Positions 1 through 64,000 of a DNA stretch of 64,000 nucleotides are shown here, in pieces; position 1 is the first letter of the stretch, and each line of letters begins with the position of its first letter. A program made the translations under genes and the position numbers. Below the pieces are notes generated by a model that was not told where the DNA came from, searched no databases, and saw only the letters and a program-made list of their open reading frames with translations. The stretch is from Truepera sp. (GTDB lineage: Bacteria; Deinococcota; Deinococci; Deinococcales; Trueperaceae). Where the stretch lies: positions 768,001-832,000 of the forward strand of contig CBDCKW010000009.1 in NCBI GenBank assembly GCA_965218435.1. The letters are read 5' to 3'.

Positions 1-3000
1 CCTATTTGGTTGGCATGAACGCCACGGCCTCGTTTGTGGGTTTGACCAGCAAGGCCCTGCACGCGCTGGGCAGCCGCTCGGCACGGTACAGCTCTACGCC
101 GACTATCTGCGTACCCACCGCTGGTTCGGCGCACCTGGCAGCGACCACCACGGAGACAGCAAAATTCACAGTTCGCTCGCGCACCTCTACAACCGTGAAC
201 GCGTCTGGATCGAGTCGTTTCACAGCAGCGGTTGGGGTGGGACGCTCGAGGAGACCTTCGACTGGCTGCTGCCGTGGCTCGGCGCAGGTGCGACGCTCTA
301 CGACCCGCACGCGGTCTACTACAGCACTTGGGGCGGCTGGTGGGAGTGGGCACCCCCCTCGACCTGCTGGCGGCAACCCTACTGGCGGCACTATCCCGTT
401 TTCGCCGCGGCGGTAGGCCGACTGTCGTACCTGCTCAGCCAGGGGCGACACGTTTGCGACATCGGCGTCCTCCACCCGACTACCACCGTTCAGGCCAATC
501 TCACCGCTGAAGGTCAGACCCTCGCCCCGGAACTCACCGAAGCAGGCTCGGCCTATAGCAAGAGCTTTAAGCGCACCGCCACAAACCGCGCTCAACTCGC
601 CAACGACGTGTACGAGGCACTGGTCGGCAGCATGATGTTTCTGGCCTCCGAAGCGGGGGTGCTGAGGCGCGACCGGCGCGACTTCGATGTGCTCGACGAC
701 GCTTCGGTGCAGCGGGGTAAGGTCACGGACGGCGGGCTCGAGGTAGCCGACGAACACTTTCGGGTCATCGTGTTGCCCGCTTGCAGTACGCTCGAGGCCG
801 CCACTGCCGAACAACTCATCGCGTTTGTAGAGGGGGGTGGTGCGCTCATCGCCGTCGCAGAGCGCCCCCAACATGTGCTGGGCAGTCCTGAAACCTTAGC
901 GCGGCTTACCGCACTTTTTGAACAGGGGCAGGCTACACTGATTCCGAGCGCCGACGACTTACCGCAGCACTTGCAGGGGCTCGAGCGCCGCGTCGATGCG
1001 CCCGTACCTGTTTTGCACCGTCGCATCGGTGAACACGAGGTTCTTTTCATCCCCGCAGTCTACCCACACGCGTCGCAATCCGAAGACGAAAACGCAAGCT
1101 GGCTCAGAGCTGACTACTCGTTCGACCCGGCACGTTACGCGCGCAAAATAGAGGTGACAGTTAGAGGGTTTGAAGGTACACCGGAGCTGTGGGACGCGCT
1201 GAGCGGCGAACGTGTCCCGGTGGCGCACACCCGCGACGGCGACCGAACCATGCTCACCGTACCCTTTGACCGCTCCCCCGCTGCGCTGCTCGTTTGGTCA
1301 GACACTCACAACACCGCACCTATGCCGGAGAAGACGTACGAAACCGTCTTGCAAACACTGCCCGATACGTGGCATTTTAGCCTCGAGCCCACCCTTGACA
1401 ACCGCTACGGTGATTTCGACAAGCCGGATTTTGCGGGTGCGCCGCCCGTGCAAACGTGGGCTTTTAGCCACAGCACCGGTGAAGACACCCCGGAGAAAAC
1501 CGTGCAGGCGACCTTCGGCTGTTACGGCTTCTGGTTTGGTCCTGGGGTTAAGGCGAGACTGCCGGAACCAACTACAAGTATTGTCGTGCCGCTCGCTGAG
1601 GGTTGGCAAGAAGCAGTCTACTCGCTGGAGCGCGGTATCTACAAAGACGCCCTCCACGTCCCGACGCTCGGCCCCAAAGGACACGTGCCCGAGGAGTTTT
1701 TAGCCTTCGGCAGGGTTGCTGCGGGCGAAGGGGTGCAGTTTTGCACAGTGCTTCACCTCGAGCACGAGACGACGCTGCAGTTGGCGCTCGGCGCGGCGGC
1801 CTACAAACAGGTGTGGCTGAACGGTTCGGAGTTACCGGAAGATGCGGGCGGCTACCTGCAGCTCTACCCTGTCACGCTTAGAGCGGGGGCAAATCTGCTC
1901 GAGTTTCGCCTCGTCGCCCAAACCGACACCGAGTTGCGCGCCTACTACGCCCTGGTGAGAGACCCCGAAGCGTTTCGTCGTCCCGAGCGGCTGACGCTCT
2001 CCGGTTCGCAGCAAAAGGATTCACGCGTCGTTTTTTCGCACACTTTTGAGATACCATTTCTACCCTTGAGCTTGCGCGTTCAAGTCGCCGCCGACGCCGC
2101 CTGCGCCGTGCGCTTAAACGGGCTCGAGCTGGGGCGGCAGGGCGGTTTCGACCCCTACTACAGTCTGGCCCGCGTGCAACCTTACAGCACCGAGCAGGTG
2201 AACCAAGGCGCGAATACGCTCGAGGTCGAGCTTCAGGATACTGGCAGGCCTTTCTCCGTGCTGATAGATGGCCTCGTAAGCGCTGCCGATGGAACCACTC
2301 AGAGCTTCATCAGCAATGAGTCGTGGCACGTCAAGCGCGATGATGGGAAGGCGCAACCCGTCACGCTTGTTCGGCAACCGCTGGGCGACCCGGCGTTTGC
2401 CCTGCTATGGCGGCGACCGCCACCGCTTCCCGGTACGCTATGGTTGGAGGGCGAACCCGCCGACGAAACCGTTCTGCCGCTCGTTCCGGCTGTACAAGCA
2501 GGCCGCACTGCGCCCGAACGCTTCCGCTGGACGCTGCCGGTCGGTGCGACGCAGCTGCATCTCGCAGTCGCCGGAAAGGTTCGCCTTTGGGTGAACGGTG
2601 AAGCACTCTCCGGGGACGGTCCTAGTTTCATGCTCCCCAACGCCGAAAAATCTCACCGTACCGCGCTTCTGGAGGTCGTTCCCGAACGGGGGCGCACGGG
2701 TGGGAGCGTATTTACCGGCCCCATCACTTACGACATTTCAGGCGGCACCACCCGGCTCGGCGCGTGGGCTGAGCAGGGTTTAGAAACCTATTCGGGTGGC
2801 GTCCGTTATCGGCATACGTTCGTACTAGACACGTTACCGGACGGCCTGCTTATTCTCGACCTTGGACGGGTGCGCGGTACAGCGGAAGTGCAGCTTAACG
2901 CGCAGACCGCCGGGGTCCGTATCCTCTCGCCTTACCGCTTCGACCTTACGCCCCTCGCGACCGTCGGGGAAAACCAGCTCGAGGTCTTGGTACTCAACAC

Positions 3001-3115
3001 TTTAGCTCCGTATCTAAATGCCGTCAGCCCTACCCATTACGTGCGTCCGGGTCAAGACGTTTCCGGACTCTTTGGCCCCATTAGCCTCCTGACCTATAAA
3101 GAAGGTCCCCGATGA
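1..3115 (+). CDS. Large glycoside hydrolase (GH106/alpha-L-rhamnosidase-like, C-terminal sugar-binding beta-sandwich); 5'-truncated by window edge
   Basis: The frame of ORF 608..3115 is open back to position 2 (…ERVWIESFHSSGWGGT…WWEWAPPS…QPYW…GRHVCDIGVLHP). C-terminal LDLGRVRGTAEVQLN…GENQLEVLVLNT…SGLFGP is typical of the GH106/GH2 jelly-roll. Stop overlaps the GH78 start. Confidence 0.75.
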   Translation, partial: LFGWHERHGLVCGFDQQGPARAGQPLGTVQLYADYLRTHRWFGAPGSDHHGDSKIHSSLAHLYNRERVWIESFHSSGWGGTLEETFDWLLPWLGAGATLYDPHAVYYSTWGGWWEWAPPSTCWRQPYWRHYPVFAAAVGRLSYLLSQGRHVCDIGVLHPTTTVQANLTAEGQTLAPELTEAGSAYSKSFKRTATNRAQLANDVYEALVGSMMFLASEAGVLRRDRRDFDVLDDASVQRGKVTDGGLEVADEHFRVIVLPACSTLEAATAEQLIAFVEGGGALIAVAERPQHVLGSPETLARLTALFEQGQATLIPSADDLPQHLQGLERRVDAPVPVLHRRIGEHEVLFIPAVYPHASQSEDENASWLRADYSFDPARYARKIEVTVRGFEGTPELWDALSGERVPVAHTRDGDRTMLTVPFDRSPAALLVWSDTHNTAPMPEKTYETVLQTLPDTWHFSLEPTLDNRYGDFDKPDFAGAPPVQTWAFSHSTGEDTPEKTVQATFGCYGFWFGPGVKARLPEPTTSIVVPLAEGWQEAVYSLERGIYKDALHVPTLGPKGHVPEEFLAFGRVAAGEGVQFCTVLHLEHETTLQLALGAAAYKQVWLNGSELPEDAGGYLQLYPVTLRAGANLLEFRLVAQTDTELRAYYALVRDPEAFRRPERLTLSGSQQKDSRVVFSHTFEIPFLPLSLRVQVAADAACAVRLNGLELGRQGGFDPYYSLARVQPYSTEQVNQGANTLEVELQDTGRPFSVLIDGLVSAADGTTQSFISNESWHVKRDDGKAQPVTLVRQPLGDPAFALLWRRPPPLPGTLWLEGEPADETVLPLVPAVQAGRTAPERFRWTLPVGATQLHLAVAGKVRLWVNGEALSGDGPSFMLPNAEKSHRTALLEVVPERGRTGGSVFTGPITYDISGGTTRLGAWAEQGLETYSGGVRYRHTFVLDTLPDGLLILDLGRVRGTAEVQLNAQTAGVRILSPYRFDLTPLATVGENQLEVLVLNTLAPYLNAVSPTHYVRPGQDVSGLFGPISLLTYKEGPR

Positions 3116-5844
3116 TCCGAATTGTCAACCCGACCTGTGAATACCGCACCAACCCTCTAGGTATCGATGTGACGCAGCCACGCCTGAGCTGGCAGTTGGG
3201 GACATCCCGGCAGGGTGCGCGGCAGACGGCTTACCAAGTTTTGGCCTCGAGCAGCCGCGAAACGCTCGAGGGAGGCAACGCCGAGCTATGGGACAGCGGC
3301 AAAATCGAGTCCGATAAATCGGTTCATGTACCTTATGGGGGCGACGCGCTCCGCTCACGCCAGCGGGTGTACTGGCGCGTGACGGTGTGGGACGAAACCG
3401 GCGCAGCGGCAGAGAGCGACATCAACTGGTTTGAAATGGGCCTGCTGTCCCGTGACGACTGGCAAGCCTCATGGGTCGGCGCAGCACTGACCGGCGGCGC
3501 ACGCTCCTCTGTCCCCGTTCCTTTTTTACGCACATCTTTCGAGCTGCCCGTTGAGGTCGTGTCCGCTCGGCTTTACGTTACGGCGCTCGGACTGTATGAG
3601 TGTCGCATCAACGGTGTGCGTGTCGGCGAAGACATCTTTGCGCCGGGGTGGACGGACTATCAAAAGCGTGTGCGTTACCAGACCTACGACGTGACCGGAC
3701 TGCTACATGAAGGCGAAAACGCGCTCGGAGCAATTTTGGGTGACGGCTGGGCGGTGGGGTTTATCGGTCTAGGGCAGCGCCAGCGTTACTACGACCAGCC
3801 TCGGCTGCTGGCGCAACTCGAGCTGACCTTTCCCGACGGACGGCGGCAGATTATCGTCAGCGACGAGAACTGGACGCACCAGTTCGGCCCCTTGATTGAA
3901 AGCGACATGTTTATGGGTGAAGCTTACGACGCACGGCTCGAGCTGCCGGGTTGGGACACGCCCGAATACGCCGAGGATGAGGCGCAGAGCTGGTTGCCCG
4001 TCCGGGTTTTTAGCGACCCTGGTATTCAGTTGAAGGCAACTAACGGGCCAGCCATCCGGAAGATTGAAGAGCTGAAACCTATTTCTAAACCTGTTGACGT
4101 GAGCGACTTTATCCGGCGGCGCTTTATCTTCGATTTGGGTCAAAACATGGTCGGTTGGGTTCGGTTTCAGGGCAGCGCACCTGCGGGTACGACGGTTGTC
4201 CTCCGCTTCGCTGAGGTTCTAAACCCCGAGGGCAGCCTCTACACCACTAACTTGCGCGACGCGCGCGCGACCGACGTGTACACCTTTAAGGGTGAGGGGG
4301 AGGAAGTCTGGGAACCGCGCTTTACCTTTCACGGCTTTCGCTACGTCGAGCTGACGGGCTACCCCGGCGAGGTGAACGCCGACACTCTTACCGGCGTCGT
4401 GCTGCACTCTGAGATGGCGCAGACCGGACACTTTGAATGCTCGAGCGACATTATCAACCAGCTCCAGCACAACATCCTCTGGGGTCAAAAGGGAAACTTC
4501 CTCGACGTACCAACCGATTGCCCGCAGCGCGATGAGCGCCTGGGCTGGACGGGAGACATTCAGGTCTTTGCGCGCACGGCGGCATTCAACATGCACGTCG
4601 CCGGGTTTATGACCAAATGGTTGCAGGACGTTGCCGACGCGCAGAGTGACGCGGGGGCCGTCCCGCCGGTCGTCCCGTCGGTGATGGGAGGTTTCGACGA
4701 CGGTGGGCCTGCCTGGGCCGATGCCGCCGTCATCTGTCCCTGGACGATTTACCTCTGCTACGGCGACACGCGTGTTTTGGAAGAAAACTACGCGGTTATG
4801 ACCCGCTTTATGGACTTTTTACGGGATACCAGTCCCGGCTTGGTGCGTTGCGCCCCCGATTATGAGGGCTGGCAGGGGTTTGGCGACTGGTTATCTATCA
4901 ATGCCGACACGCCCCGCGACCTCATCGGGACAGCTCTTTACGCCTATGACACGTACCTTATGGGGGACATCGCCGAGGTTCTAGGACGTGCCGACGACGC
5001 CCAAAAGTACCGCGCCCTTTACGGCGAGATAAAAGACGTGTTTCAGGCGCGCTTTCTCAAGGGGGGAAGCCAGACGGACGCGGCGAAAGCCTCGAGACCC
5101 GACCTCAGCCAAGCCGACGCCATCTCACGGGGGAACCTCGAGGTCATCGACTACGGCCCGGTCAGCTCAGAAGTCTTCGACACAGAGCTATTCACCCCGA
5201 CGCAGACCGCTTACGTGCTGGCGCTCCACTTCGGCCTCTTGCCGGACGCCCTGCAACCTCTCGCCGCTGACGAACTCGTCGCCGACATCGAACGCCGTGA
5301 CCTGCACCTGTCAACCGGCTTTGTCGGCGCACCGTACCTGCCGCATGTGCTGAGCGCCCACGGCAAAACGGAGACGGCTTTTAAGCTTTTGGCGCAGACG
5401 ACCTGGCCCTCGTGGGTTTACTCCGTCACGCAGGGTGCGACGACCATCTGGGAGCGCTGGGACGGCTGGACGGAGGAGCGCGGGTTTCAGGATGCGGGCA
5501 TGAACTCGTTTAACCACTACGCTTACGGTTCTATCGGGGCGTGGCTTTACCAGACTGTGGCGGGGCTCGAGCCCGCTCTACCCAGTTACAAACATATTTT
5601 GGTTAAGCCTCAACCGGGGGGTGGTTTGACCTGGGCTCGAGCCTCATTCGCTTCTCCCTATGGGCAAATTGCGGTGTCGTGGCGTTTAGAGGCTGAGATG
5701 CTGCAGCTCGAGGTCACAGTTCCACCGAACACCACAGCGACGCTCATACTCCCTGAGGGTTACAGGTTTGTAGAGGGAAAGAGGGCAGAACTCGAGGCTG
5801 GAAACCAAACTTTTGTCGCCCATCAAGAGTCTGAGTTCTTCTGA
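3112..5844 (+). CDS. Alpha-L-rhamnosidase, GH78
   Basis: Motifs CEYRTNPLGID..PRLSW, FDLGQNMVG, FTFHGFRYVE, PTDCPQRDERLGWTGD, GATTIWERW, MNSFNHYAYG. Confidence 0.95.
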   Translation: MIRIVNPTCEYRTNPLGIDVTQPRLSWQLGTSRQGARQTAYQVLASSSRETLEGGNAELWDSGKIESDKSVHVPYGGDALRSRQRVYWRVTVWDETGAAAESDINWFEMGLLSRDDWQASWVGAALTGGARSSVPVPFLRTSFELPVEVVSARLYVTALGLYECRINGVRVGEDIFAPGWTDYQKRVRYQTYDVTGLLHEGENALGAILGDGWAVGFIGLGQRQRYYDQPRLLAQLELTFPDGRRQIIVSDENWTHQFGPLIESDMFMGEAYDARLELPGWDTPEYAEDEAQSWLPVRVFSDPGIQLKATNGPAIRKIEELKPISKPVDVSDFIRRRFIFDLGQNMVGWVRFQGSAPAGTTVVLRFAEVLNPEGSLYTTNLRDARATDVYTFKGEGEEVWEPRFTFHGFRYVELTGYPGEVNADTLTGVVLHSEMAQTGHFECSSDIINQLQHNILWGQKGNFLDVPTDCPQRDERLGWTGDIQVFARTAAFNMHVAGFMTKWLQDVADAQSDAGAVPPVVPSVMGGFDDGGPAWADAAVICPWTIYLCYGDTRVLEENYAVMTRFMDFLRDTSPGLVRCAPDYEGWQGFGDWLSINADTPRDLIGTALYAYDTYLMGDIAEVLGRADDAQKYRALYGEIKDVFQARFLKGGSQTDAAKASRPDLSQADAISRGNLEVIDYGPVSSEVFDTELFTPTQTAYVLALHFGLLPDALQPLAADELVADIERRDLHLSTGFVGAPYLPHVLSAHGKTETAFKLLAQTTWPSWVYSVTQGATTIWERWDGWTEERGFQDAGMNSFNHYAYGSIGAWLYQTVAGLEPALPSYKHILVKPQPGGGLTWARASFASPYGQIAVSWRLEAEMLQLEVTVPPNTTATLILPEGYRFVEGKRAELEAGNQTFVAHQESEFF

Positions 5845-6357
5845 CATCTACCTCAAGCAGATGCGTGTAGGAGCAAGATTGAGGGACTTAAGAAGTTGTA
5901 GATAAGCTGGCAGATATCCGTATATTGAAGAAAGGCGAGGTGTTGCCCAGCAAATATGAGCTTTAGAGCCGACAGATGAACTGCCCACCTCGCTTACTAC
6001 GCCACAGTTGCCTGATGTGAAGAAGCTAGTCAGCTACACTTTACTGTGTGAAACAGGCAATCCAGTCTCTAATCGCTTTAGGTAAATACATCTTGTTAAG
6101 ACGTTCGTAAACCGTCCGCTAAAGCTGATTGTCGGACAGGATAATTTCTTTGGAGGTGCAGATGGGCGTATAGCAAATAGGCGCGCGCCAACCGTAAATT
6201 TTTGACCTACTTGTACAGGTTGTTTACAGGTTACGCTGCGAGACGCCATAACACCATACGGTATACAATGAAAACTAAAGCGTTAAGAACTCTATCCCTG
6301 ACGGTCTTTCAAAACGGGACGAAACAGCGTAATACGCTGCGAAATACAAGTTGCCTT

Positions 6358-6403
6358 TTTTGCAAGCAGGGGGTCATCAGTTCAAATCTGATAGGCTCCA
6401 CCA
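6358..6403 (+). tRNA. 3' half of tRNA-Ala(TGC): att-site duplication, not a complete tRNA
   Basis: tt-TGC-aa-gcagg-gggtc-ATCAG-TTCAAAT-CTGAT-aggctcc-a-CCA: anticodon loop, perfect 5-bp T-arm, U70/A73 Ala identity, CCA. No D-arm or 5' acceptor strand upstream. About 100 bp from the integrase stop. Confidence 0.9.
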
Positions 6404-6425
6404 CTAGAAACACCGTGCAGCACGC

Positions 6426-6453: not shown

Positions 6454-7355
6454 CGTTGTTTTACGGAATAGTTTGCACCTTATTTTGCACCTACAGGGTT
6501 CAGTTTGCCGTGTCAGGGTCGCCTTTGGGAAGCATATCCAAGAGGCTCACCGCTGCCCCTCTTCTATCGTCGTCAAACAGGTGTGTGTAGAGCCGAGTCG
6601 TAAAGGCGGGGTCGGTGTGGCCTATCTGGTCGGCTATCAGCTTAGCGTCTTGTCCTAACTTGCGCCGCATGGAAACGTTGAGGTGTCTAAGGTCATGTAA
6701 GCGGACGTGCGGCAAAAGCTTACCGCTCTCGAGCCCCTTTACCGTAGCCCCGTCACCCGCTTCCCTTGCGGCTGTCAGCCACGCGGCGCGGGCGCTGTCT
6801 TGTAAGGCGCACCAGGTGCCGCTCGAGGTTCCGAGGGTAGAGCAGCGTGCCGGTCTCTGAAGGAAGTACGAAATCGTTAGCGACCGCGGTTAGCTCGAGC
6901 GTCTTATCACGCTGCTGATACACGTTGACACGCTCAGGCCACGCCGGGGCGGGCACGTTCGGCTACTGTCAGCGACCGGTGCATCTCTAGGGCGTCAAGT
7001 ACATCTGGGGTAACAGGGATAGTCCGCTGACCTTTATGTGTCTTAGGGGCGCTCAGCACAAGCTTGTCAGCGACCGGCACGAGTGTTTGCCGCACCTTAA
7101 GAGCGTCGCCCTCGAGGTCTCGTCAGCGTAGCCCCAAAAACTCACCCGCCTCATCCCGGTAGACAAAGCAAGGTAGACAGGGCAAAAAGGCGGTGAGGTC
7201 TAGCGACCGCTAAGAACCGGATAACCTCTTCAGGCGACCATAAGACTATCTCCTTAGTCGTCTCCTTCAGCGGGTCTACTGCCTCAACCGGGTTGCGGTT
7301 AAGCAGCTCCCAACGAATCGCCTGTTTAAGTGCGCTAAAAAGCACTGTCCGGCTC

Positions 7356-9764
7356 ATCGGGTAAGGAGACGGCATCACTGCCGCCCCCTCCCCTCAGAAC
7401 CGGACGTGCCTCTCTCAAGGCATCCGGCTCAAGCAGAAAATGAAGCATCAAAGGAGTAATTCTCTCGTAGCTCGGGGAAGATTATCTTTCACCGAGCCGT
7501 GGACTTGTTGGTGACAGGTTAGATGCAGTATCCGCTGTTTTGCAAAGTCATGCCGTGCTAAATTCTTTTGGTCAGTAATCAAGTGATGACGATGCAGTGG
7601 CTCACCGTTATTCAGCGAACCAAAACACACGGGGCAGATAAAGTCGTGTTGCTTAGCCACCTCATAGTGAAGACCTGAGAGACCGGAGTACTTTCGACTT
7701 CTCTTTGCCCAATAGTTTTTCTGCAAGGCGTCATCGGGTGCAGCAAGGTTGAATACCAACCGATGCCGCGTGATTTTGAACCAAGCGAGCTTCGCCAGAT
7801 AAGTGTTGCCGTCGGGGTCGCCAAAGACCCACCGAGCTTTTCTTAAGTGATGATGCTGCCCAAAGTATTTAGCTACGCGCCAGCCAACCGATTTTGTCGG
7901 GTGTTGCCATCTTATCCACTTGACCAGCTTTTGGAAGAGCCAAGAGTCAAGCGAGGCAAACACCTTTGCTGACGAAACGGGTTGAAAATAACGCGCCCAA
8001 CCACGTAAAACGGGGTTGAGATGGTGGATGAGCACCTGAGCATTGTGCCCCCTTAAGCGCACAAACATCTCGGTAAGCTTTTTCTTGAACCTTGCGATTG
8101 AAGCGTTGCTGGGTTTGACAAGCCCGACGACCTTTTCTGGGTTATCTCTCCGCTGATAAAGCCGGAAATTACACCCAAGAAAGTCAAAACCTCCCGTGAG
8201 ATGCCTGATCTGGGTTTTAGCCTCGTTGAACACGAGTCCCCGATCTGCAAACCACGTTCTCAGCTTTGTGCGAGCTTGTTCTGCTTCCTCACGAGTCTTG
8301 CAGAAAACGATAAAGTCGTCTGCATATCTCACGAGACCATAGCGGTTCTTACTGGATGTCTGACCATTGGCATAACGAGCAATACCAAGGGTCGTTTCCA
8401 TGCCGTGAAACGCTATGTTAGCCAGCAAGGGACTAATAACACCTCCCTGCGGAGTACCCGCAGGCGTATCGTGCTTGACGGTACCGTCCATGAAGCCTGC
8501 CTTTAGCCACTGTTTAATCAGTTCCTTGGCGGGAAACTGACCGATGGCCTGCAACAGGTGGGTATGGTCGATATTGTCAAATGCCCCTTGGATGTCTGCA
8601 TCCAGTATCCACTGCTTAGTAGCGCGTGCCCTGCAATAGCTATAGGTCATACTCAGGGCGTCGTGGGTACTTCGCCCTGGTCTAAAACCGTAGCTACTTG
8701 GCTCAAAGCGAGCCTCCCACTCAGGTTCCAACGCATTTTTGACGCGTGCTTGATGAGCCCGGTCGCCAATGGTTGGTATCCCAAGCGGGCGTTTAGCACC
8801 ACTTTGCTTCGGGATATAAATCCTGCGCGCAGGTTTGACATGCCAAGGTTGGGACTCTAGCAATTTGTCTACTAGAGCGGCCTTGGCTTTCGAGGTTAAG
8901 GCAACCTCTTTATCCACCCCTGCGGTTTTTCCACCCGCATTGTCCACAGTGACGCGACGGACGCTAACAACAGTGTTGGCGTAACTCCGTAGCATCAGCT
9001 TTTGGAGAGAACGAACCTTTTTAAGGTTCCCTTCCTTTGATGCCCTAAAGATTCTCTGTCTCAAGTTGCGTACCTGCCGATTGGCGCTACGCCAGTCAAT
9101 GACCTGCCAATCGGTCGGGCTTTTGGTTCCGTTTGCTAAGCTTGGCGCTTGCATCTAACTTGCACCTCAATTCGCAACTTTCACGTTGGTCTTTAGGATT
9201 TCCACCAGTCCCGCGTCAGCTCCCTTTCAGGATGGGTATGCCCGTCATACGGCCCTATCCGGTGGGTTATGAATTCCCCGTGCCTTTCGGCTACCGGCTT
9301 TCGCTTTTCGGGACTTCTTGTTCCCGCTGGAGGGTTGTGCCTCGCTTGCGCTTGGCCTACCACTTGTGTGGACTCCATCGGGGTTTCCACGTTCCGCACG
9401 TAAGAGATGTGATCGGTTGCGGATGCCTTTTGTACCCCGGGTTCTTGGTGCCCTTGCATGAGCGCTATGCACCCATGACGCCGCGCAGCTTGAACACAGA
9501 GCTACGCCTTGAACCATGATCGTTTTGCTGTCGTCCAGCGATCTTTCTACCTTACGAGGCTTACAAAGGTTCACTTTCGTTCATCCTTCCGATCTTCTCC
9601 TTGCCTGTGGCCTTTTGACGACTAACGGCTCTTGGGCTTTCATTCGGGCTTCGCACCCTGTCGTTACCAACAACGCACGCCGAATGTGGAGATAGGCTTC
9701 AGGCACTCGCCTAGTTCAACCCTATGAGGGTTGAACACTCTTACTGTGCGACTTCGTGTCGCAC
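7356..9764 (-). mobile_element. Group II intron (probably IIB/chloroplast-like class), 2409 nt
   Basis: 5' end GTGCGACACG at 9764. Domain V GAGCCGGATGCCTTGAGAGAGGCACGTCCGGTTC, domain VI ending ..TTACCCGAT at 7356. Removal restores the integrase frame (…ACC GCG AAC AT|G AGC CGG ACA… = TANMSRT). EBS1 GUGUUC (9492-9497) sits in a stem-loop and pairs with exon IBS1 GAACAU. Confidence 0.96.
7448..9154 (-). CDS. ltrA: Group II intron reverse transcriptase/maturase with HNH endonuclease
   Basis: RT N-terminal W..IDW..A.RQV..L..RI, RPLGIPTIGDR, GTPQGGVISPLLAN, YADD, maturase LNPVLRGWARYF, C-terminal CPVC…HRHH…HLTCHQQVH. Confidence 0.96.
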   Translation of the reverse strand: MQAPSLANGTKSPTDWQVIDWRSANRQVRNLRQRIFRASKEGNLKKVRSLQKLMLRSYANTVVSVRRVTVDNAGGKTAGVDKEVALTSKAKAALVDKLLESQPWHVKPARRIYIPKQSGAKRPLGIPTIGDRAHQARVKNALEPEWEARFEPSSYGFRPGRSTHDALSMTYSYCRARATKQWILDADIQGAFDNIDHTHLLQAIGQFPAKELIKQWLKAGFMDGTVKHDTPAGTPQGGVISPLLANIAFHGMETTLGIARYANGQTSSKNRYGLVRYADDFIVFCKTREEAEQARTKLRTWFADRGLVFNEAKTQIRHLTGGFDFLGCNFRLYQRRDNPEKVVGLVKPSNASIARFKKKLTEMFVRLRGHNAQVLIHHLNPVLRGWARYFQPVSSAKVFASLDSWLFQKLVKWIRWQHPTKSVGWRVAKYFGQHHHLRKARWVFGDPDGNTYLAKLAWFKITRHRLVFNLAAPDDALQKNYWAKRSRKYSGLSGLHYEVAKQHDFICPVCFGSLNNGEPLHRHHLITDQKNLARHDFAKQRILHLTCHQQVHGSVKDNLPRATRELLL

Positions 9765-10184
9765 ATGTTCGCGGTACATGTCCCGGAAACAGACGCGATA
9801 CTCGAGACCATCTCTTGCACGTCGAGTGGGGTAAGCCGGTCTAGTTTCTTACGTCCGATACTTGGAATGATGTGTTTGACGACGGCGTGCTGATGGGCTT
9901 CAGCGGTGCGTGGTTTGACCTGCCCCTGTTTATGCTCGAGCCATCTTTCCGGTAGTCCCCTACCGTCAGCTTGGTATCGGTATAGGTGCCGTTTGAAAGC
10001 CGCTGCTTTATCTCTGTTACTTTAGCCAGCACTTCACCCTGCGTTTTGCCCGGTACCCACCTAAACTTTTGCTTACCTTCATTGTTATAACCGACTGCGA
10101 CCTTGCCTCGCCACGTACCATCGGGCCGTTCAAAGATAGAGCCCTCACCCTTACCGCGTCTCGTGCTACGTCTGCGTGCCACCT

Positions 10185-38570: not shown

Positions 38571-38653
38571 TAGTTATCTCCCACGCAAGCCTAGCAAATA
38601 GGAGCTCGAGCCTCCCGAACAGCTCTACCGGCTTTAGATAATAAGCTTAAAAG

Positions 38654-39261: not shown

Positions 39262-39356
39262 GTCGTCACCAACCTCGAGAAATAGTATAGGACGGGGAAA
39301 GGGGCTCGAGCCTTTTGAATTTGTCGTGGGGTGACACCTAGAAGTTACTGGGGCAT

Positions 39357-41137
39357 CTATATCTGTTTGGTTCTGAACGCTTCAAGTTCAGATAACAATT
39401 CAAGTAAATCTTGTGGTATCTCGTTTCTATGCATTGCCTCAACTATTCTAGCATTGGTGAGAGATATACCGAACTCTTGATATTTGGTGCGTAGTTCAGC
39501 CAGGACTTCTTTCCCTGATACAAGTTTCATACGTGTATCTAGGTCTTCCCACTGGGCATCAACTTTCTCAAGGGTTTCCTGATGAATAGTTGAAGAGTCT
39601 TTTTTGTTGGATCGAAAATAGTTTTCACGTTCTTTGAGCAGCTGAGCAACGACATGATTTTTTTGGAGTCTGTGATGTTGCGGAGTAAATCCTGCATGTC
39701 AGGAACTGGCTGGAGTTCCTCGTTAGCTCGAGCAGCACGTTCAGCTACAGCTCGTTTAACTGCTCTATCAAGTACGGAAGGGATAAGTAGATAGTTCTCG
39801 ATTTCCTTGCGTTCATGAACGTGCGCTACCACAAGATTCTTTTTGAGAGAAGAGCTTATGTGTTCGATTTCTTCGTCACAATGAAAGTCTTTATCGTAGA
39901 TGGCTCCGATATGTAACTTCGTTCCTAATGCATCCTCGATACCTTCGGCAAGTGTAGTCACTTTTTGCCATGAGCCGAATCCTCCAGATTCGAGCGCAGT
40001 GATACCAAGTCCAGAGGAAAGTTCTGTAAGCCCAATTTTCTTTGCAATACGTCGCAGCAGACGAAAATCGCTATCGCCTTCAATAAACAAAATTTTCCTG
40101 TTTCGTGCCAGTGCTGTCAGAGTGATGTTTTGAATCGAACCTACTGTAGCTAGTGCTCTCTGAACTCCTGTAATATCACGTAAGCGTTCTGCACGTTGTT
40201 TCTTTTTGTCAATTAGTAAAATTTCGGTGGGGTCAGCTTCAGCCATAATTTCTGTCGAATGTGTGGCTAGTAAGATATCTGGCCCAGCTTCACGAAGCAA
40301 ACCTAACAGTTGTCTTTGGACATCTGGATGCAAGTAAACTTCGGGCTCGTCAACAATAAGTAATGAACTATGCCTTGATCGAGACACGTGAGTAAGTAAT
40401 TGACACCAAACTTGAAAACCAAAACCGGCCCAATAGAGTTCACGTGTGATACGGTTCTCGAGGCAAAACATCGCTAGTTCACCGTTGATTGGGTCTGCAA
40501 GTTCGGGCGGCTGAATTTCCATTCCAGGCCAGGTAGTTGCAACTAAGTCGGCAAACTCAGAGAATCCTTGGGGAAAGTGATTCCAATAGCTTCTGAAGTG
40601 GCGAGAAGCTCTGTGTGTGCTAAGACCGGCAACAACAGTGTCTTTCTCGCGCTGCTTTTCTCTATGCTCTACAGGACCAAGTACGGGCACTACTGTTATG
40701 TCCAAAGGAAAGTGTTTTCGGAAGCTGCTAGGAGACGTGACAAGTGAACCATCCCTACTTTTTGGGATTAGATAGCAACCTCCAGTTCGAGGAAAAATCA
40801 ATTTCAGACGTGAGCCATTACTGAGATTGAAGCTGATAAAAGTATCTGCGTTTGAGTAATCAGTGTGAACGTTTTCAAGAGAAATCGGAAGGAGTTCGTT
40901 CTTGATAATATATCCACTAAGAATTTCTTCGTCAGATACGCGAACTCTTTCGGCAGATTTAGATCGAGCGACGCGAAGCCCAGCCGCAAGAGTCCGAAAA
41001 GCGCCCAGTATTGTTGATTTACCAGAGTTGTTAGGGCCAACTAGCAAATTTATACGATCAAGAGAAAGCGTGTAGTTTGCGAATGCTTTGAACTGACTAA
41101 ATGTTACTGTTGTCAATCGGGCGTTTACTTCGGGCAC
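39357..41137 (-). pseudogene. ABC-ATPase + TOPRIM nuclease (OLD or fused PARIS-like), frameshifted at an A7 tract
   Basis: GPNNSGKST, GFGFQ signature, IVDEPEVYLHP, ATHS, FIEGDSD, YDKD, KEIENYL. The frame continues after one added A at 39658-39664 (…VSGKEVLAEL…) to a stop at 39357. AT-richer than flanks. Confidence 0.8.
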
Positions 41138-45233: not shown

Positions 45234-45566
45234 GGTTTTTAATCTATCATAAGGTGCTGCTCTAAAAGTATGAGCCTGGAACTAAGCCATTACGGACCGT
45301 GAAACAGCCTACCGAAGTTTATCAAAGGTGGATTGTCTTTAAGTAAGCATAATGAAGAGGAAAACACGCGCACCACAAGGCTGGGCAGTTGCCCCTTCCA
45401 AACTACGCCTTTCAAAAGCGCGGAGAGCTTGACTGAAAGCGCGGCAGGTGGCAACGCCCAAAGCTCGAGCTGATCAAATCTGCGTTACCATATGCTTGTG
45501 TAAAGATAAGTGTGGCGGAGTTTTTAACTCTTACCAACCTGAAAAACCTGATATTTAAGAGGTTAT

Positions 45567-58102: not shown

Positions 58103-58137
58103 AGCGTCCTTCGCGGCGTTGGCATAGCCTAGTTCAA

Positions 58138-58184
58138 CTAAAAAGCTACGGACTTTGCTGCTTACAAAGTCCGTAGCTTTTTAG
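58138..58184. terminator. Bidirectional intrinsic terminator
   Basis: Perfect 20-bp inverted repeat CTAAAAAGCTACGGACTTTG/CAAAGTCCGTAGCTTTTTAG. Confidence 0.85.
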
Positions 58185-58672
58185 GGTGCGCTCAAACTAG
58201 AGTTCGGCGATAAGTACAACTTCACCTGACTTCACAGCCTTTTACCTAGCGTTAACCAGCAGCTATTAAAATCGGTAGCGACTTGCAGATGAGTCGGAGG
58301 GAGAAGGTTTTGGTGGGAAAAACCACAAGCAGCTGACGAGCGCGGCGCACCGATTCTAAGTAGCCAGCGTACCAGAGACCTCAACCCCGCTGCCTCAAAG
58401 CTGTGAGCTGTCAAGGTAGTGCTGAGTTGGTAGTACTACCTAGCGCATCTATAGCTGACACCTCACAGATAACGCCAGCGAGTTGACCCAAAAATATCTC
58501 CATCTATGTAATTAGGTGCGGTCTTGGGAGGCAGATCAGAAAAGCAACAAAGCATACAAACACAGCACTAACATCTGCACCAAGCTCACTGAGTACGTGT
58601 TGGCGAATAGGGCAAAACGGCTTCTCCCTCCACCCACTGCCGAGAGCGAAACTAGAAACGGAGATAAAACCC

Positions 58673-61024
58673 ATGACGACATCTGCAAAAGATCACCCTG
58701 ACATGACTAACGGCGGCCATGACACGACCACGAAGGTCACGGGCCGCGCGGCAACTACGGGCGCTTGCCCATTCCGCGGCACCCGTATCGGCGGCGCTAT
58801 CGGTTCGGAACCGCAGCTCGATACCTGGTGGCCGAACCGCCTCAAGGTCGAACTCTTGCATCAGAACCCGCCTCAGGCCAACCCGCTCCGGGATGTCAAC
58901 TACGCGGAAGCGTTCTCGCAGCTTGATTACCACGCGCTCAAAGCCGACATCAAGGCGCTCCTCCAGTCTTCTGTAGACTGGTGGCCGTCGGACTACGGCA
59001 ACTACGGGCCGCAGATGATCCGGATGGCGTGGCACTCGGCGGGTACCTACCGCATCGCCGACGGGCGTGGCGGCGCGGGGCAGGGGATGCAGCGCTTTGC
59101 GCCGATTAACTCGTGGTGGGACAACGGCAACACCGATAAGTCGCGTCGGCTCTTAGCGCCCATCAAGCAGAAGTACGGCGCGGCGCTCAGCTGGGCCGAC
59201 CTGCTGATCTTGACTGGTAATGTCGCCTTAGAGGAGATGGGCTTTCCGACTTTCGGCTTCGGCGGTGGCCGCCTTGACGCTTGGGCGGCCGACACCGCTA
59301 CCTACTGGGGTCCCGAAGGCTGGGAGGGTAAGGAGCACGTAGGCCACCCCGACGAGATGGTCAACTTGGGCAAACGCTGGCAGGGCAACCCTAAACAGGA
59401 CTATTGGGACCTCGAGAACCCGGTCGCAGCGTCGCACCAGGCGCTGATCTACGTCAACCCGGAGGGTCCGGATAAAAATGGCGACCCGCTGGACAGTGCG
59501 CGCGAAATCCGCGAGAGCTTCGCGCGGATGGCGATGAACGACGAGGAGACCGTCGCGCTGATCGCCGGGGGTCACGCTTTCGGCAAGTCGCACGGGATGG
59601 TCGCGCCGGACAAAATCGGCCCCGCACCGGAGGCGGCTACCATGTCGCTCCAGGGTCTCGGCTGGCACAATCCCGAGGGCAGCGGCAACGCCGAGCACAC
59701 GATGACCAACGGCATCGAGGGCTCGTGGACACCGAACCCGACGATGTGGGACAACGCCTACCTTACGAACCTCTTCAAGTATGAGTGGGAGCAGACGAAG
59801 AGTCCCGCAGGTGCGCTTCAGTGGACACCGGTTGACCCGGACGCGCCCAAGACGCCTGACGCTCATATAGGGGGCCAGCAGAACGACCTGATGATGATGA
59901 CAACCGACATCGCGCTGAAGCGGGACCCGGCGTATCACGAGGTCTGCCAGCGGTTCCTGGGCGACTTTGACTACTTCACCGACGCCTTCTCGCGGGCCTG
60001 GTACAAGCTGACCCACCGCGACATGGGGCCGATAGACCGTTACGTCGGCCCGGAGGTGCCGGAGGTGGTCCTCCCCTGGCAGGACCCGATTCCAGCGCTC
60101 GAACACGAGGTCGTGAATGACGCGGACATCGCCCAGCTCAAGGGGACGATCTTAGACAGCGGTCTGTCGGTGTCGGCGTTGGTGTCGGCGGCTTGGGCCT
60201 CGGCCTCGAGCTACCGCGACAGCGACAAACGCGGCGGCGCGAACGGCGCACGTGTGCGGCTCGAGCCGCAAAAGGACTGGGCGGTCAACCACCCCGACCA
60301 ACTGGCAGAAACGCTTCAAACGCTCGGGGGCGTTCAGTCTAACTTTAACAGTGCCCAGTCAGGTGGCAAAAAGGTGTCTATGGCTGACCTGATCGTCCTC
60401 GGCGGTGTCGCCGCGGTTGAGCAGGCGGCCAAGGACGCGGGCGTTGAGGTGAGCGTCCCCTTTGTGCCGGGCCGGATGGACACGACCCAGGAGCTGACCG
60501 ACGGTGAGAGCTTCGAGTGGCTTAAACCCGTTGTGGACGGTTTCCGCAACTACGTCAACGAAGAGGTTAAATACAACGTCGCGCCCGAGCATCTCTTCCT
60601 CGACAAGGCGCAGCTGTTGACCCTGACCGCCCCCGAGTGGACGGCCCTGGCGGGCGGCCTCAAAGTCTTGGGTATCAACTACGACAGCTCTGAGCACGGC
60701 TTGTTCACTGACCGGCCGGGCGTCCTGACCAACGACTTTTTCAAGGTGCTGACCTCGATGGACTACGCGTGGAAGCCGCAAGACGGGCGCGAGCTGACGT
60801 TTGACATCACCGACCGCAAGACCGGCGAGACTAAGTTCACGGCTACACGTTGCGACTTGGTGTTCGGCGCGAACGCGCAGCTGCGCCAAATCGCCGAGGT
60901 CTACGCTGCAAACGACGGCCACGAGCGGCTGGTCAAAGACTTCGCTAAAGCTTGGCACAAAGTGATGATGCTCGACCGTTACGACGTGCCGGAAGCGCAC
61001 GCCGAAGCCACCTCAACTTGCTGA
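58673..61024 (+). CDS. katG: Catalase-peroxidase
   Basis: [60 protein letters not shown]. Confidence 0.98.
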
Positions 61025-61050
61025 CTGATAGAACGAGGCGATAACAGAGT

Positions 61051-61077
61051 GGGTCTGCTTTGGCAGGCCCCTTTTTT
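61051..61077 (+). terminator. katG terminator
   Basis: GGGTCTGC-TTTG-GCAGGCCC followed by TTTTTT. Confidence 0.8.
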
Positions 61078-61410
61078 GTGTGCATCCGATTTTATGTGCA
61101 TCCGACCGGGGATGTCCCAGGAAGACGTGACCTGTTTTGAGCTGAGTTCGGACCCATAACGCAGAATCTCCCAAGCTGGCGTTGAAAACCTATCAAGGCG
61201 ATACGGTTATGGGTTCACTCGAGCTATTTTGTTGAAGTAACCCATTTTTACCGGGAGTTTGAGCTGGGGGTTGGTCTTTAACAGTTGCCGAGTGTCCACC
61301 ATGCGACGCTGCGACCCCACGTTTCAGCGAACCGCCGCGTACACAGCGTGACGTTGGCTTGCACCAGCCCGCTGCCTAAGCGTGCGCCCTGATTACGGCT
61401 ACGCGCACCC

Positions 61411-63012
61411 CTACTCGAGCGTCAACACAAACGCGTACAGCTCGGGGCTACCGGCGTGCAACTCGAGCTCGAGCCCGTCAAACTGTTCGGCGAGCTGTTT
61501 ATGAAGCGCCTCGGCCCGTTCGCGGCCTACCGCTGAACTGTAAAAAAGCACGCCCAACTCGTAGTCCGCCGCGACGTTTTCGACGAGCTCGCTCATGCAC
61601 GTTTCGGGTGACGCTGCCGCAGCCTTGAGCTGACCGTTTTGCAACCCGATAAACTCGCCTTCGGTGACCGCAACGCCTTCAACCACGGCCGTACGGCTCG
61701 CCTTGGTGACCTCGAGGGTACAAGCGTGCTCGGCAGCCTCTTGCAGCTTACCGTAAAGCTCGTCTACCTCGCTGTTTTCATCGAATAAGACGGCCGCGGC
61801 CAGACCTTCACCGAGAGTTCGCGTCGGCAGCACCCGGATGTGCTTCTCGGGAATGAGTTCGCCGACCCGCTCGGCGGCCATGATGATGTTTTTGTTGTTC
61901 GGCATGATGATCACATCAGTGGCCCCGACGCTCCGCACTGCGTCGGCGATGTCTTGCACGCTCGGGTTGTTCGTCTGACCGCCCCCGACCACGCGTGCGC
62001 CGAGGCTGCGAAACACTTTGGTAACGCCAAACCCCGCACTGACCGCGACGAGCGCCGTTTTCGGCGGCGTAATCCCGCTCGGGTCGGCACCGGCCAGAAT
62101 CTCCTGGTGCTGCTCGCTCATGTCTTCGACTTTGGTCCTGACGACTGTACCGTAACGCGCGACGAGGGCGAGGAGTTGTTCGGGTTCTTCGGTGTGAATA
62201 TGGCCTTTGACGTACCCTTCTGCGCCGACGACGAGGAGCGAATTGCCAAAGCTCTCAACCTCGGCCTGAATCTCTTCGGTCGGTACCGTCACATCGGAAA
62301 GCAAGAATTCAGTACAAAACCCGAACTCCTGCTCTGCAAACGCCTCTTGTGCGTGCTTGGTGACGGTGGGGGGCGGTGGCAGCTCGCGCCCTTCAAACGA
62401 CGCGATAATGCCCTCGAGCACGCGTAAAAACCCTAAACCACCCGAATCTACGACGCCCGCTTGCTTGAGCATTGGAAGCTGGTCGGGCGTGCCTTGGAGC
62501 GCCTTATCCCCGGCTTTTAGGGCGTCACGGAGCACCTCTAAAGGAGACACCGATGCTGCGCCCTCAGCACCCTCCGCCGCTGAGCGCACCACGGTTAAAA
62601 TCGTGCCTTCGACGGGTTTCATTACGGCAGCGTAGGCACTCTTCGACGCACTTTTAAGTGCCTCAACCACCGCTTTACTCCCAAGCGTCCTTTGGCCTTT
62701 GATGCTTTCGGCAAAGCCTTTAAGGATTTGACTTAAAATCACGCCCGAGTTGCCACGTGCGCCGAGCAGCGAGCCGTAAGAGAGGGCGTGCGCGAGTTCG
62801 CCCATCGTTTTAGGGGCGGCGTTACTGAGCTGCTGCCGTACCGACTGCATCGTCAGGTGCATGTTGGTCCCGGTATCGCCGTCAGGGACAGGGTAGACGT
62901 TGAGCGCGTTGACCTCTTCGACGTAGACGCCGAGCCAGTCGGTCGCGTAGGCGAAGGCGCACGCTAAAGCCGGAGCCTCGAGCAGCGGTTCGACCGGAGC
63001 GACCTGAGTCAC
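61411..63012 (-). CDS. fakA: DAK2-domain fatty acid kinase subunit A (YloV family)
   Basis: LNVYPVPDGDTGTNM, GARGNSGVILSQ, PVEGTILTV, VDSGG.G, GGQTNNPS, PNNKNI. Start taken at GTG 63012. Confidence 0.93.
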   Translation of the reverse strand: MTQVAPVEPLLEAPALACAFAYATDWLGVYVEEVNALNVYPVPDGDTGTNMHLTMQSVRQQLSNAAPKTMGELAHALSYGSLLGARGNSGVILSQILKGFAESIKGQRTLGSKAVVEALKSASKSAYAAVMKPVEGTILTVVRSAAEGAEGAASVSPLEVLRDALKAGDKALQGTPDQLPMLKQAGVVDSGGLGFLRVLEGIIASFEGRELPPPPTVTKHAQEAFAEQEFGFCTEFLLSDVTVPTEEIQAEVESFGNSLLVVGAEGYVKGHIHTEEPEQLLALVARYGTVVRTKVEDMSEQHQEILAGADPSGITPPKTALVAVSAGFGVTKVFRSLGARVVGGGQTNNPSVQDIADAVRSVGATDVIIMPNNKNIIMAAERVGELIPEKHIRVLPTRTLGEGLAAAVLFDENSEVDELYGKLQEAAEHACTLEVTKASRTAVVEGVAVTEGEFIGLQNGQLKAAAASPETCMSELVENVAADYELGVLFYSSAVGRERAEALHKQLAEQFDGLELELHAGSPELYAFVLTLE

Positions 63013-63438
63013 TGTACTGTCCCCTGTGCTGCCTCTAAACCGGTAATGTGCCCTGAAGCTGAGCGGGTTGTAAACCACAAGTTCATGATTCTCCCTAGCG
63101 CCGAGTGATATACACCAAGGCTTGATAGGGCAATCTTACCGCATCTGTAAATAAACTGAGTAATAAACCCCGTATTAGACGTTCATCTACGGCTTTTTAG
63201 GCGGTTGCTGGTGGCTCGAGCCTGTCACGAAGTTTTTCCTACGGGACTTCTTTCAGCTTGGGGCCAACATCGTTTAAGTTGCCGTAAGCGGTGTGCCTTG
63301 TCCTTCCGGATCAGTAAAGAGAAATACACTAAATCTAAATCTTCGGGTAACACGTTGCAATCGTCGCCTAAACACAATTTTCGGTGTGTTTCAAGTTTGA
63401 TTGGGACGCGAAAGAAGGTAGATTTGCGCTGCTCAACC

Positions 63439-63750
63439 CTATAGTGAATCCCACAGTTCGACCTCGAGCCGACTCTCGGTCACCCTGTACTCGCCCTGCG
63501 CCGCCACAAACGCTTCGATACGGTGCAAGAGTGTCTCGAGTCCCACCCTGTCGCTGCTGATGACGCTGACGCCGATCTCTTCCCAAGTGTGCTCATCTGC
63601 GCCGCCAAGCCGCGCCGCCGACACCGAAAAACGTACCTTGAGTTTTTCAACGACCGGTTTCACAAGTCCGCGTTTCTCTTTTAACGAGCGTACCCAGGGC
63701 ATCTCGAGGCGGGCTTGGTACACTCCGACATAGACATTGGTATCTCTCAC
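63439..63750 (-). CDS. DUF503 (YlxP-like) protein
   Basis: SLKEKR..VK….LK.RF.VS.A; start taken at GTG 63750. Confidence 0.85.
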   Translation of the reverse strand: MRDTNVYVGVYQARLEMPWVRSLKEKRGLVKPVVEKLKVRFSVSAARLGGADEHTWEEIGVSVISSDRVGLETLLHRIEAFVAAQGEYRVTESRLEVELWDSL

Positions 63751-63760
63751 AAGGGTTCTT

Positions 63761-64000
63761 TCATCCAGAGTTCTTTTGGCCTCTCGAGCCCAACACTCGC
63801 CCATAGATGTGTTCAGGGCGCAGCGCGTAGTCTTTGGTAGCTAACGCCAGCGCCGCACCGTCGTCAGCGTCGGGAACTTGTACCTGCAGGTCGTAAACAG
63901 CGGCGTCGTAGGCACTTTTGGTCACGGCTTCTAACAAGGCTGCCCTCGCCTCGGTGTCAGCCTCAACATTTTCAGTCTCGGGGACGCTCAGGCGGTTGAC
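63761..64000 (-). CDS. 3' end of a hypothetical protein starting beyond the window
   Basis: Open minus frame VNRLSVPETE…YDLQVQVPD…KDYALRPEHIYGRVLGSRGQKNSG*. Confidence 0.55.
   Translation of the reverse strand, partial: VNRLSVPETENVEADTEARAALLEAVTKSAYDAAVYDLQVQVPDADDGAALALATKDYALRPEHIYGRVLGSRGQKNSG

Follow-up and report, generated by a model that had tools for sequence, protein, structure and literature searches.

CTCGAG is a highly iterated palindrome in Truepera and many other Deinococcota and is a possible Chi signal for AddAB

Introduction

CTCGAG is a palindromic hexamer that is unusually frequent in a 64,000-nucleotide stretch of a Truepera sp. genome (assembly GCA_965218435.1, contig CBDCKW010000009.1, positions 768,001 to 832,000; here called the window) and in the rest of that genome. 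The closest described system is HIP1 (GCGATCGC), the highly iterated palindrome of cyanobacteria. HIP1 is a single dispersed palindrome that is over-represented in all reading frames and in intergenic DNA; it is conserved beyond controls, has a hexamer core of the methyltransferase type, occurs as lineage-specific hexamer and octamer variants, and is associated with orphan methyltransferases (PMC4390886; PMC5861425). CTCGAG resembles HIP1 in each of these respects, although it is a different sequence in a different phylum. Elhai's model of HIP1 invokes a cytosine enzyme, whereas the candidates for CTCGAG are adenine methyltransferases of three families.

Other systems offer partial likenesses. 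Like CTCGAG, the Chi sites of AddAB and RecBCD (PMC4614115) are short words that are over-represented genome-wide, and the Truepera genome encodes a cognate AddAB with alignable Chi helices. However, the Chi sites described are non-palindromic, whereas CTCGAG is palindromic, cannot be skewed, and has unskewed flanks. The XhoI/PaeR7I and TaqI systems act on the same site or on its TCGA core, and PaeR7I-like and TaqI-type methyltransferases occur in relatives of Truepera. Most palindromes are avoided in this genome, as is usual for restriction sites, but CTCGAG is enriched instead. The uptake sequences of the Neisseriaceae and Pasteurellaceae are dense, driven motifs that override codon choice and shift dipeptides, as CTCGAG does; they are 9 to 10 bp long, non-palindromic, and have a known receptor. 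In Nocardia, a conserved orphan methyltransferase modifies the same hexamer, but the motif clusters at oriC there (PMC4752239), whereas the enrichment described here is genome-wide and the origin carries no site.

We found that CTCGAG has two defining features of the highly iterated palindromes (a genome-wide, codon-independent excess and conservation between species) but is not HIP1. The over-abundance of CTCGAG is apparently undescribed in this phylum: our literature searches, whose scope excluded most subscription journals and REBASE, returned no account of it.

Results

CTCGAG is over-represented in the window and in the genome

The window contained 143 copies of CTCGAG (2.2 per kb) between positions 245 and 63788, in all reading frames and in intergenic DNA. 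The site had the form GCTCGAGC in 37 of the 143 copies and the form GGCTCGAGCC in 9. An earlier reading of the window, made from the sequence alone (the sequence-only reading), had estimated about 20 sites in the first 5.9 kb; we counted 21 in positions 1 to 5900, compared to about 2 expected from base composition. The extended forms that it had placed near 38604, 39303, 45463, and 63213 were all GCTCGAGC, and two of them were also GGCTCGAGCC.

The genome (G000; 4.81 Mb) carried the window on a 3.94-Mb contig (C9). Genome-wide, there were 9,883 copies of CTCGAG (2.1 per kb, or about one per 490 bases), which was 5 to 7 times the expected number and made CTCGAG the most frequent hexamer. The observed-to-expected ratio (O/E) was 6.7, 6.1, 5.2, and 3.4 under Markov models of orders 0, 1, 2, and 3, respectively; it was 1.24 at order 4, where the expectation derives from the 5-mers of CTCGAG itself. 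CTCGAG was the sole enriched word among the 64 palindromic hexamers, with a runner-up at an O/E of 1.13 (order 2). Most of the 64 were under-represented, which ruled out a general enrichment of palindromes. Avoidance was extreme for GGCGCC, GGGCCC, and TTTAAA (O/E 0.02 to 0.04) and for AGGCCT, GCCGGC, and GCATGC (about 0.1); CGATCG, the core of HIP1, was also avoided (0.15).

The sequence-only reading had proposed a codon-preserving shuffle as a check, and the enrichment persisted when we applied one. Specifically, synonymous codons were shuffled within each of 4,093 genes predicted with our own script. The observed numbers of coding sites in frames 0, 1, and 2 were 6,337, 500, and 1,310, compared to 2,000, 74, and 260 after shuffling (3.2-, 6.8-, and 5.0-fold). 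CTCGAG ranked first in frames 1 and 2 and eighth in frame 0; over all hexamers it ranked second, behind the non-palindromic TTTAGA. Short intergenic DNA had a CTCGAG O/E of 6.5, and thus sites were present in several frames and between genes, as had been claimed. The effect was also visible in codon choice. Glu was encoded by GAG in 95% of cases after CTC and in 36 to 57% after 14 of the 15 other C-ending codons; the value after TTC was 87%, and TTCGAA itself was avoided. The Leu-Glu dipeptide had an O/E of 1.26 in the encoded proteins, and the frame 0 sites were drawn from 8,147 coding sites in total. These results show that the enrichment is real and acts at the DNA level. Information in the flanks was confined to the first two bases; therefore, a mobile short repeat is an unlikely source of the sites.

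Sites are retained, spaced, and most dense on small plasmids

We compared 225 orthologous gene pairs from G000 and a congener (400 kb of G005), in which the identity at fourfold sites was 0.53. Leu-Glu spelled CTCGAG was retained in 0.81 of cases, the highest value among 102 dicodons (median, 0.455), and retention climbed with G/C flanks (0.53, 0.60, and 0.66). Paralogous repeats also gave a higher retention of CTCGAG, but they were pseudo-replicated and we did not rely on them. One-step neighbors of the site were depleted: CTCGAA about 7-fold, and CTT, CTA, or CTG followed by GAG about 2.4-fold relative to the TTA and TTG codons. No enriched halo of other CTCGAG neighbors was observed in G000. 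A pseudo-likelihood codon model had not converged at 150 iterations and split the signal with 4-mer terms, and we used only its direction.

The spacing of sites was more even than that of all 121 control hexamers (coefficient of variation of the gaps, 0.954; minimum among controls, 0.999), and pairs closer than about 240 bp were in deficit. With the protein held fixed, CTCGAG was the spelling of 45% of the Leu-Glu pairs that had another site within 60 bp and of 59 to 65% of those more than 240 bp from one; the control was flat. The two flanking bases had independent effects in G000, G012, and G017; in G009, G022, and G023, their independence was less complete.

Density was flat along the chromosome. 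There was no cluster at oriC (the dnaA-dnaN origin, with 11 DnaA-box matches, had zero sites), no significant periodicity from 5 to 200 kb (strongest peak, 72 kb; P = 0.115, using a spectrum simpler than the published HIP1 method), no significant short-range helical periodicity, and no replichore skew of the flanked variants (the 5'-flank variants split 0.49 to 0.51). Convergent intergenic regions were mildly richer (2.45 versus 1.9 per kb). CTCGAG was also about twice as common in the last 30 nucleotides of genes, with 141 and 110 copies per 10-bp bin just ahead of the stop codon versus about 70.

Density did differ between replicons and elements. Near-identical, recent multi-copy elements had 0.21 sites per kb, about 10-fold below the chromosome, and small plasmids had 5.2 (C6) and 3.2 per kb, compared to 2.1 per kb on the chromosome. 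Plasmid C6, about 2.4-fold above the chromosome, had 4.9 sites per kb even in non-coding DNA and a Leu-Glu O/E of 2.1. Selection, or a drive whose local returns diminish, would account for the spacing and the dependence on replicon, both of which are hard to obtain from a context-only mutation bias.

The plasmid contigs C6 and C8 were assembled as tandem repeats with units of 13 kb and 9 to 10 kb, respectively, and the nearest plasmid relatives of the C6 integrase were in Deinococcus. A different word, GGGGAGA, was the most replichore-skewed 7-mer on C9 (311 versus 109), and AGGGGAGA was skewed 124 to 15. GGGGAGA switched strand near the terminus and the origin, and all 4 copies in the window were on the plus strand. 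We take it to be a KOPS-like candidate for orienting FtsK.

CTCGAG enrichment varies across the phylum

We counted CTCGAG in 161 + 22 genomes and, in 80 of these, computed an index (the CTCGAG count divided by the mean of the composition-matched neighbors CACGAG and CTCGTG). Handles are used for groups, among which we infer that f2 corresponds to the Deinococcaceae, g23 to Thermus, and g26 to Meiothermus. The index was 8.5 in G000 and 1.6 to 18.7 within its own family. It was 8 to 27 in g26, 17 to 20 in g33, 13 to 15 in g34, 4 to 8 in f3, and 2 to 6 in g23, and it reached 89 to 94 in the uncultured family f5, which had 5 to 6 sites per kb. In f2, it was 0.1 to 0.8 in 9 of 10 genomes.

Codon-aware tests on samples showed strong enrichment in G000, G005, G008, G017, G046, G123, g33, G030, and f5, little or no enrichment in nine genomes of the Truepera family (eight with high GC and G007) and in G026, and avoidance in f2. 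The comparison with related Deinococcota that the sequence-only reading had called for thus revealed enrichment in many relatives and avoidance in one family. In the g23 samples, other TCGA hexamers were at 0.01 to 0.17 of expectation and CTCGAG was spared at 0.5 to 0.9. In four genomes of the Truepera family (G009, G017, G022, and G023), 59 to 90% of the sites were the octamer GCTCGAGC.

Several further observations concerned individual genomes. The word CCTCGAGG was nearly absent from G009 (2 copies) and G017 (3 copies). In the f5 genomes G032, G036, and G040, GAGCTC and GAGCAC/GTGCTC were almost absent (4 to 29 copies per genome). A locus titled Myxococcota (L049), which carried a homologue of methyltransferase family A (see below), had 45 CTCGAG versus 6 expected and was the only clearly enriched locus outside the Deinococcota among 80 loci; it may represent a second lineage or a contig that was binned wrongly.

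Three adenine methyltransferase families track the enrichment

Three unrelated adenine methyltransferase families tracked the trait: family A, a PaeR7I-like family B (64% identical to annotated paeR7IM), and a TaqI-type family that matched M.TaqI (E = 1e-208). The family A enzyme of G000 (P0001; G000:C9:3672240-3673922) is a stand-alone gamma-class adenine methyltransferase of 560 amino acids that is set among housekeeping genes with no adjoining restriction gene. The other methyltransferases of G000 were type I/III-like, Dam-like, and the products of two C5 genes; one of the C5 genes adjoins a restriction-like gene.

Each of the 17 g26 genomes carried exactly one of families A and B (A in 13, B in 4), and g34 carried family B. 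The TaqI-type enzyme was present in 10 of 10 g23 genomes, as well as in G094 and G030; its presence in every Thermus-like genome searched suggests a conserved role beyond sporadic restriction. In the Truepera family, A or B was found in 15 of 16 high-index genomes versus 7 of 19 low-index genomes. That three families replace one another across the phylum argues that methylation of this adenine is valued.

Of 31 genomes with an index of at least 8, 21 had a candidate family. The other 10, including the four richest (index 89 to 94) and all four g33 genomes, had no A, B, or TaqI-type enzyme within the queries used and in genomes that were incomplete; therefore, methylation appears to accompany the trait without being a requirement for it. 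Moreover, G001 had both A and B yet an index of 4.0, and G013 had A but no codon-level enrichment. Searches with the Eco57I, N6_N4, C5, N6, and D12 families and three protein queries revealed no single universal methyltransferase; specifically, there was no C5 enzyme in the two g33 genomes searched and no D12 enzyme in G059, G095, or G017. A beta-class methyltransferase was conserved in the Meiothermus group; it had no orthologue in G000, and no specificity could be assigned to it. The methyltransferase link suggested by the sequence-only reading thus stands insofar as candidates exist and replace one another; it falters on the richest genomes and on the specificity of P0001, which is unproven.

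Outside the phylum, family A was usually beside a restriction-like gene, and CTCGAG in those loci was at 0.89 of expectation, neither enriched nor clearly avoided. A search for the specificity of family A returned no solved relative, and 1 of 19 neighboring restriction-like proteins had a faint XhoI match (E = 0.038). Family A may resemble mycobacterial MamA. Restriction-enzyme-like open reading frames (ORFs), with no Pfam match, adjoined the family A gene at L014:869-1585 (G005) and L038:11599-12264; thus, family A is not always an orphan. In L038, a Meiothermus locus, the family A gene was about 5 kb from the dnaA-dnaN origin and adjoined pyk and eno. MutS and a MutL-like gene were present in G000. 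We detected neither Vsr nor MutH there in searches whose positive controls were both detected, and no XhoI-family nuclease in a weak search whose control matched nowhere.

The predicted Chi pocket of AddB co-varies with CTCGAG

The sequence-only reading did not consider AddAB, and the link between AddAB and the trait is new here. G000 encodes an AddAB pair outside the window (G000:C9:3359875-3365677). A profile of the 768-residue AddB matched Bacillus subtilis AddB (3u44_B; E = 1.9e-10), and the five best Foldseek matches were AddAB chain B. Its neighbor matched the AddA/RecB families, but under their cut-offs. This AddB was detected in 55 of the 57 non-f2 genomes, compared to none of the 23 f2 genomes. 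The two misses were G032, which has AddA, and G007, which is unenriched and has no full AddA match either. Published work reports addAB as absent from Deinococcus and shows that AddAB limits plasmid transformation about 100-fold in Thermus; the passages covered do not give a Thermus Chi sequence (PMC9751324). Some Deinococcaceae carried an AddAB-like pair of a different family (L375/L383 in G033 and L376 in G092).

The residues of the B. subtilis Chi pocket (D41, Q42, T44, F68, R70, W73, and F210; PMC4614115) aligned with high posterior to the AddB of G000, and alignment alone located the pocket. Position 44, which adjoins the equivalent of T44, was Y or F in 17 of 18 genomes that had an index of at least 8 and AddB data. 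In the Truepera family, Y/F44 occurred in 9 of 11 genomes with an index above 4.5 versus 1 of 17 below, a count that leaves out G016 because its alignment failed. Position 44 was the most degraded of 99 conserved AddB columns, with several different residues in the unenriched genomes of the family, which looks like relaxed constraint. Six of the 10 most degraded columns were in the pocket segments, which hold 19 of the 99. Enriched genomes from different families thus kept the predicted pocket, whereas unenriched genomes of the Truepera family had a degenerate one. We also fetched 80 metagenome loci, of which 42 of at least 3 kb remained after dereplication and 28 were used; the median CTCGAG O/E was 4.9 with Y/F44 versus 1.8 without. 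No skewed, over-represented, non-palindromic Chi candidate stood out in G000.

Features of the window

The features of the window that bear on the distribution of sites were as follows.

1..5900, no strand: dense CTCGAG stretch with 21 sites in two long coding regions
6500..7355 (approximate), minus strand: 3' part of a decayed integrase, 4 sites
7356..9764, minus strand: group II intron with a reverse transcriptase/maturase ORF (7448-9154), 0 sites
9765..10170 (boundary approximate), minus strand: 5' part of the decayed integrase, 2 sites
38604..38611, no strand: GCTCGAGC site
39303..39312, no strand: GGCTCGAGCC site
39539..41137, minus strand: AAA-ATPase gene with a low GC content (44%), 2 sites in 1.6 kb
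45463..45470, no strand: GCTCGAGC site
63213..63222, no strand: GGCTCGAGCC site

The complete-looking group II intron interrupts a decayed tyrosine-integrase gene (6500-10170), and a tRNA-like sequence, identified by eye, lies just upstream at about 6350-6410. The intron matched Rfam families RF00029 (7356-7432) and RF02012 (9628-9714), and its ORF carried the Pfam domains RVT_1 and GIIM. The counts of about 6 sites in the integrase and none in the intron, given by the sequence-only reading, were borne out (4 + 2 and 0). Zero sites in the intron had a probability of 0.006 at the genome density and 0.52 at an unenriched background, and therefore the intron is simply unenriched. That site density dates foreign DNA, as had been suggested, was true in part: the recent multi-copy elements and the intron were poor in sites, but no clock emerged and both small plasmids exceeded the chromosome. 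The low-GC AAA-ATPase gene is likely a recent arrival. The window also encodes a type II/IV secretion ATPase (PilB-like).

Discussion

The genome-wide excess of one palindrome and its conservation between species agree with the HIP1-like character that the sequence-only reading had ascribed to CTCGAG. An active process that retains the sites, which it had also proposed, is in keeping with the top-ranked retention, the local repulsion with the protein fixed, and the phylum-wide pattern. As for what that process might be, our tentative first choice is that CTCGAG is a Chi signal that would be read strand by strand by AddAB and spread through biased repair of breaks. This proposal takes the observed enrichment, retention, repulsion, flank independence, plasmid excess, and pocket co-variation and adds two inferred steps, recognition by AddAB and drive. 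AddAB would degrade DNA from a broken end and stop on reaching CTCGAG, preferably one with a 5' G. Polyploidy is known in this phylum. In cells with several copies of a chromosome or plasmid, resection of a copy without the site would run past that position, and the copy would be restored with a site-bearing copy as template; a copy with the site would keep it. The resulting drive would mimic positive selection on each one-step mutation that creates CTCGAG, with a smaller gain beside an existing site and a larger gain on multi-copy plasmids. Since the site is a palindrome, one site could serve broken ends arriving from either side, and the independence of the two flanks in G000, G012, and G017 is what reading of each strand predicts. 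The sparing of CTCGAG among the TCGA hexamers of the Thermus-like samples, the plasmid transformation limit set by Thermus AddAB, and the lack of a skewed non-palindromic candidate also speak for a role as Chi. The adenine methyltransferases would be secondary, either shielding the sites from restriction of the XhoI/PaeR7I/TaqI type or reinforcing a self mark. The wider version of this proposal is somewhat more doubtful: CTCGAG would be the palindromic Chi of most Deinococcota AddAB, driven to one site per 160 to 500 bases with rewriting of proteins, its flank would drift with AddB (from the hexamer to GCTCGAGC), and it would decay when the pocket or AddAB is lost.

A number of points weigh against a role as Chi. 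Eight genomes of the Truepera family and G026 have AddAB with little or no codon-level enrichment, and thus the presence of AddAB is not enough. In a quick tree, the low-index genomes of the family fell into three groups on long branches and possibly represent a single lineage, and all 13 metagenome loci without Y/F44 are at least 68% GC; the pocket signal is therefore confounded with ancestry and GC content, and its p-values exaggerate its strength. Individual genomes also depart from the pattern: G012 has D44 with an index of 16, G010 has Y44 with an index of 2.5, G009 and G022 are octamer-rich although neither has Y44, the Thermus-like genomes retain the pocket with an index of 2 to 6, and AddB is most divergent (about 31% identity) in f5, where CTCGAG is most abundant. 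In addition, the flanks are not fully independent in G009 and G022, some Deinococcaceae (G033 and G092) encode the different AddAB-like pair, and many other genes could match the presence pattern of AddAB. Known Chi sites are strand-skewed, and an index of up to about 90 seems far above Chi norms. According to a preprint on HIP1 (bioRxiv 10.1101/2024.09.10.611283), none of the known Chi sites is palindromic or methylated, and the HIP1 effect was not removed by deletion of addAB homologues in Synechococcus PCC 7002; for CTCGAG, by comparison, the AddAB pocket co-varies with the motif. CTCGAG does not have the non-palindromic, polarized form that defines Chi, and it should therefore not be filed as Chi without an assay.

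Close to this proposal, which we rank slightly ahead, is the possibility that the adenine of (C)TCGA(G) is methylated and that a mismatch-repair, recombination, or transformation factor favors the methylated strand or molecule. New sites would then be fixed and old ones protected, as in Elhai's ratchet for HIP1 or in the use of methylated HIP1 as a self mark. The three methyltransferase families, with A and B mutually exclusive in g26, and the MutS and MutL-like genes of G000 suit this explanation. Published work adds that local saturation is predicted by Elhai's model (PMC4390886), that methylated HIP1 boosts transformation more than 100-fold, and that an orphan CTCGAG methyltransferase exists in Nocardia (PMC4752239). 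However, the families were not found in almost a third of the genomes with an index of at least 8, G001 has two of them with only moderate enrichment, G013 has family A with no codon-level enrichment, no Vsr or MutH was found in G000, and family A, whose target is putative, is usually a neighbor of restriction-like genes outside the phylum. Moreover, a hexamer enzyme would not define the octamer that dominates in G009, G017, G022, and G023. Repair drive at Chi and methylation may also combine, by analogy with methylated HIP1 in transformation. An uptake or self-recognition sequence, read on duplex DNA by a probably dimeric protein (a competence receptor or another binder) and spread through biased uptake and recombination, is less probable. 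The palindrome and the symmetric octamer variants suit a dimer; the plasmid excess, even spread, and retention fit; the window carries the PilB-like gene; and others have argued that HIP1 is connected with uptake (PMC13756078). On the other side, Deinococcus is naturally transformable according to published work and yet avoids CTCGAG, the AddB pocket pattern is left unexplained, and no candidate receptor was identified, although no search for one was made. Uptake sequences elsewhere are linked to terminators, and the convergent intergenic regions here were only mildly richer.

The remaining explanations are improbable. A signal for chromosome architecture to which a nucleoid protein binds, as Xu, Lawrence, and Durand proposed for HIP1, would account for the even spacing and for the retention of sites between species; the flat density, the higher density of small plasmids, and the lack of an oriC cluster or a significant period from 5 to 200 kb all speak against it, and the chromosome-organizing role raised by the sequence-only reading found no backing. 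In comparison with HIP1, no significant kilobase-scale period emerged for CTCGAG in the simplified spectrum. Slightly less credible still is neutral context-dependent mutation or very-short-patch repair that turns near-matches into functionless CTCGAG. The drained one-step neighbors are what such a process would leave, but there is no halo of other enriched neighbors and no Vsr, the use of a site depends on the distance to the next, retention rises with G/C flanks, and the plasmid exceeds the least constrained chromosomal DNA. The majority of coding sites in frame 0 and the Leu-Glu excess would suit a codon, dicodon, or protein-level preference for Leu-Glu as CTC GAG; we give this next to no credence, and as a cause it was refuted by the synonymous shuffles and by the greater enrichment out of frame and between genes.

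For three decades, there has been no agreement on what HIP1 does. With a second highly iterated palindrome in another phylum that shows gains, losses, and hexamer and octamer variants and has culturable, transformable members, the function of such elements becomes a comparative and experimental question, and candidate readers (AddAB and three methyltransferase families) can now be named. If our preferred explanation were true, the enzyme family that has been studied in Thermus would gain its Chi, the rule that Chi is non-palindromic would be broken, CTCGAG would become the first iterated palindrome whose reader is identified, and repair would be a molecular drive strong enough to alter codons and dipeptides. 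The addition of CTCGAG may help the delivery of DNA into Meiothermus- and Truepera-type hosts.

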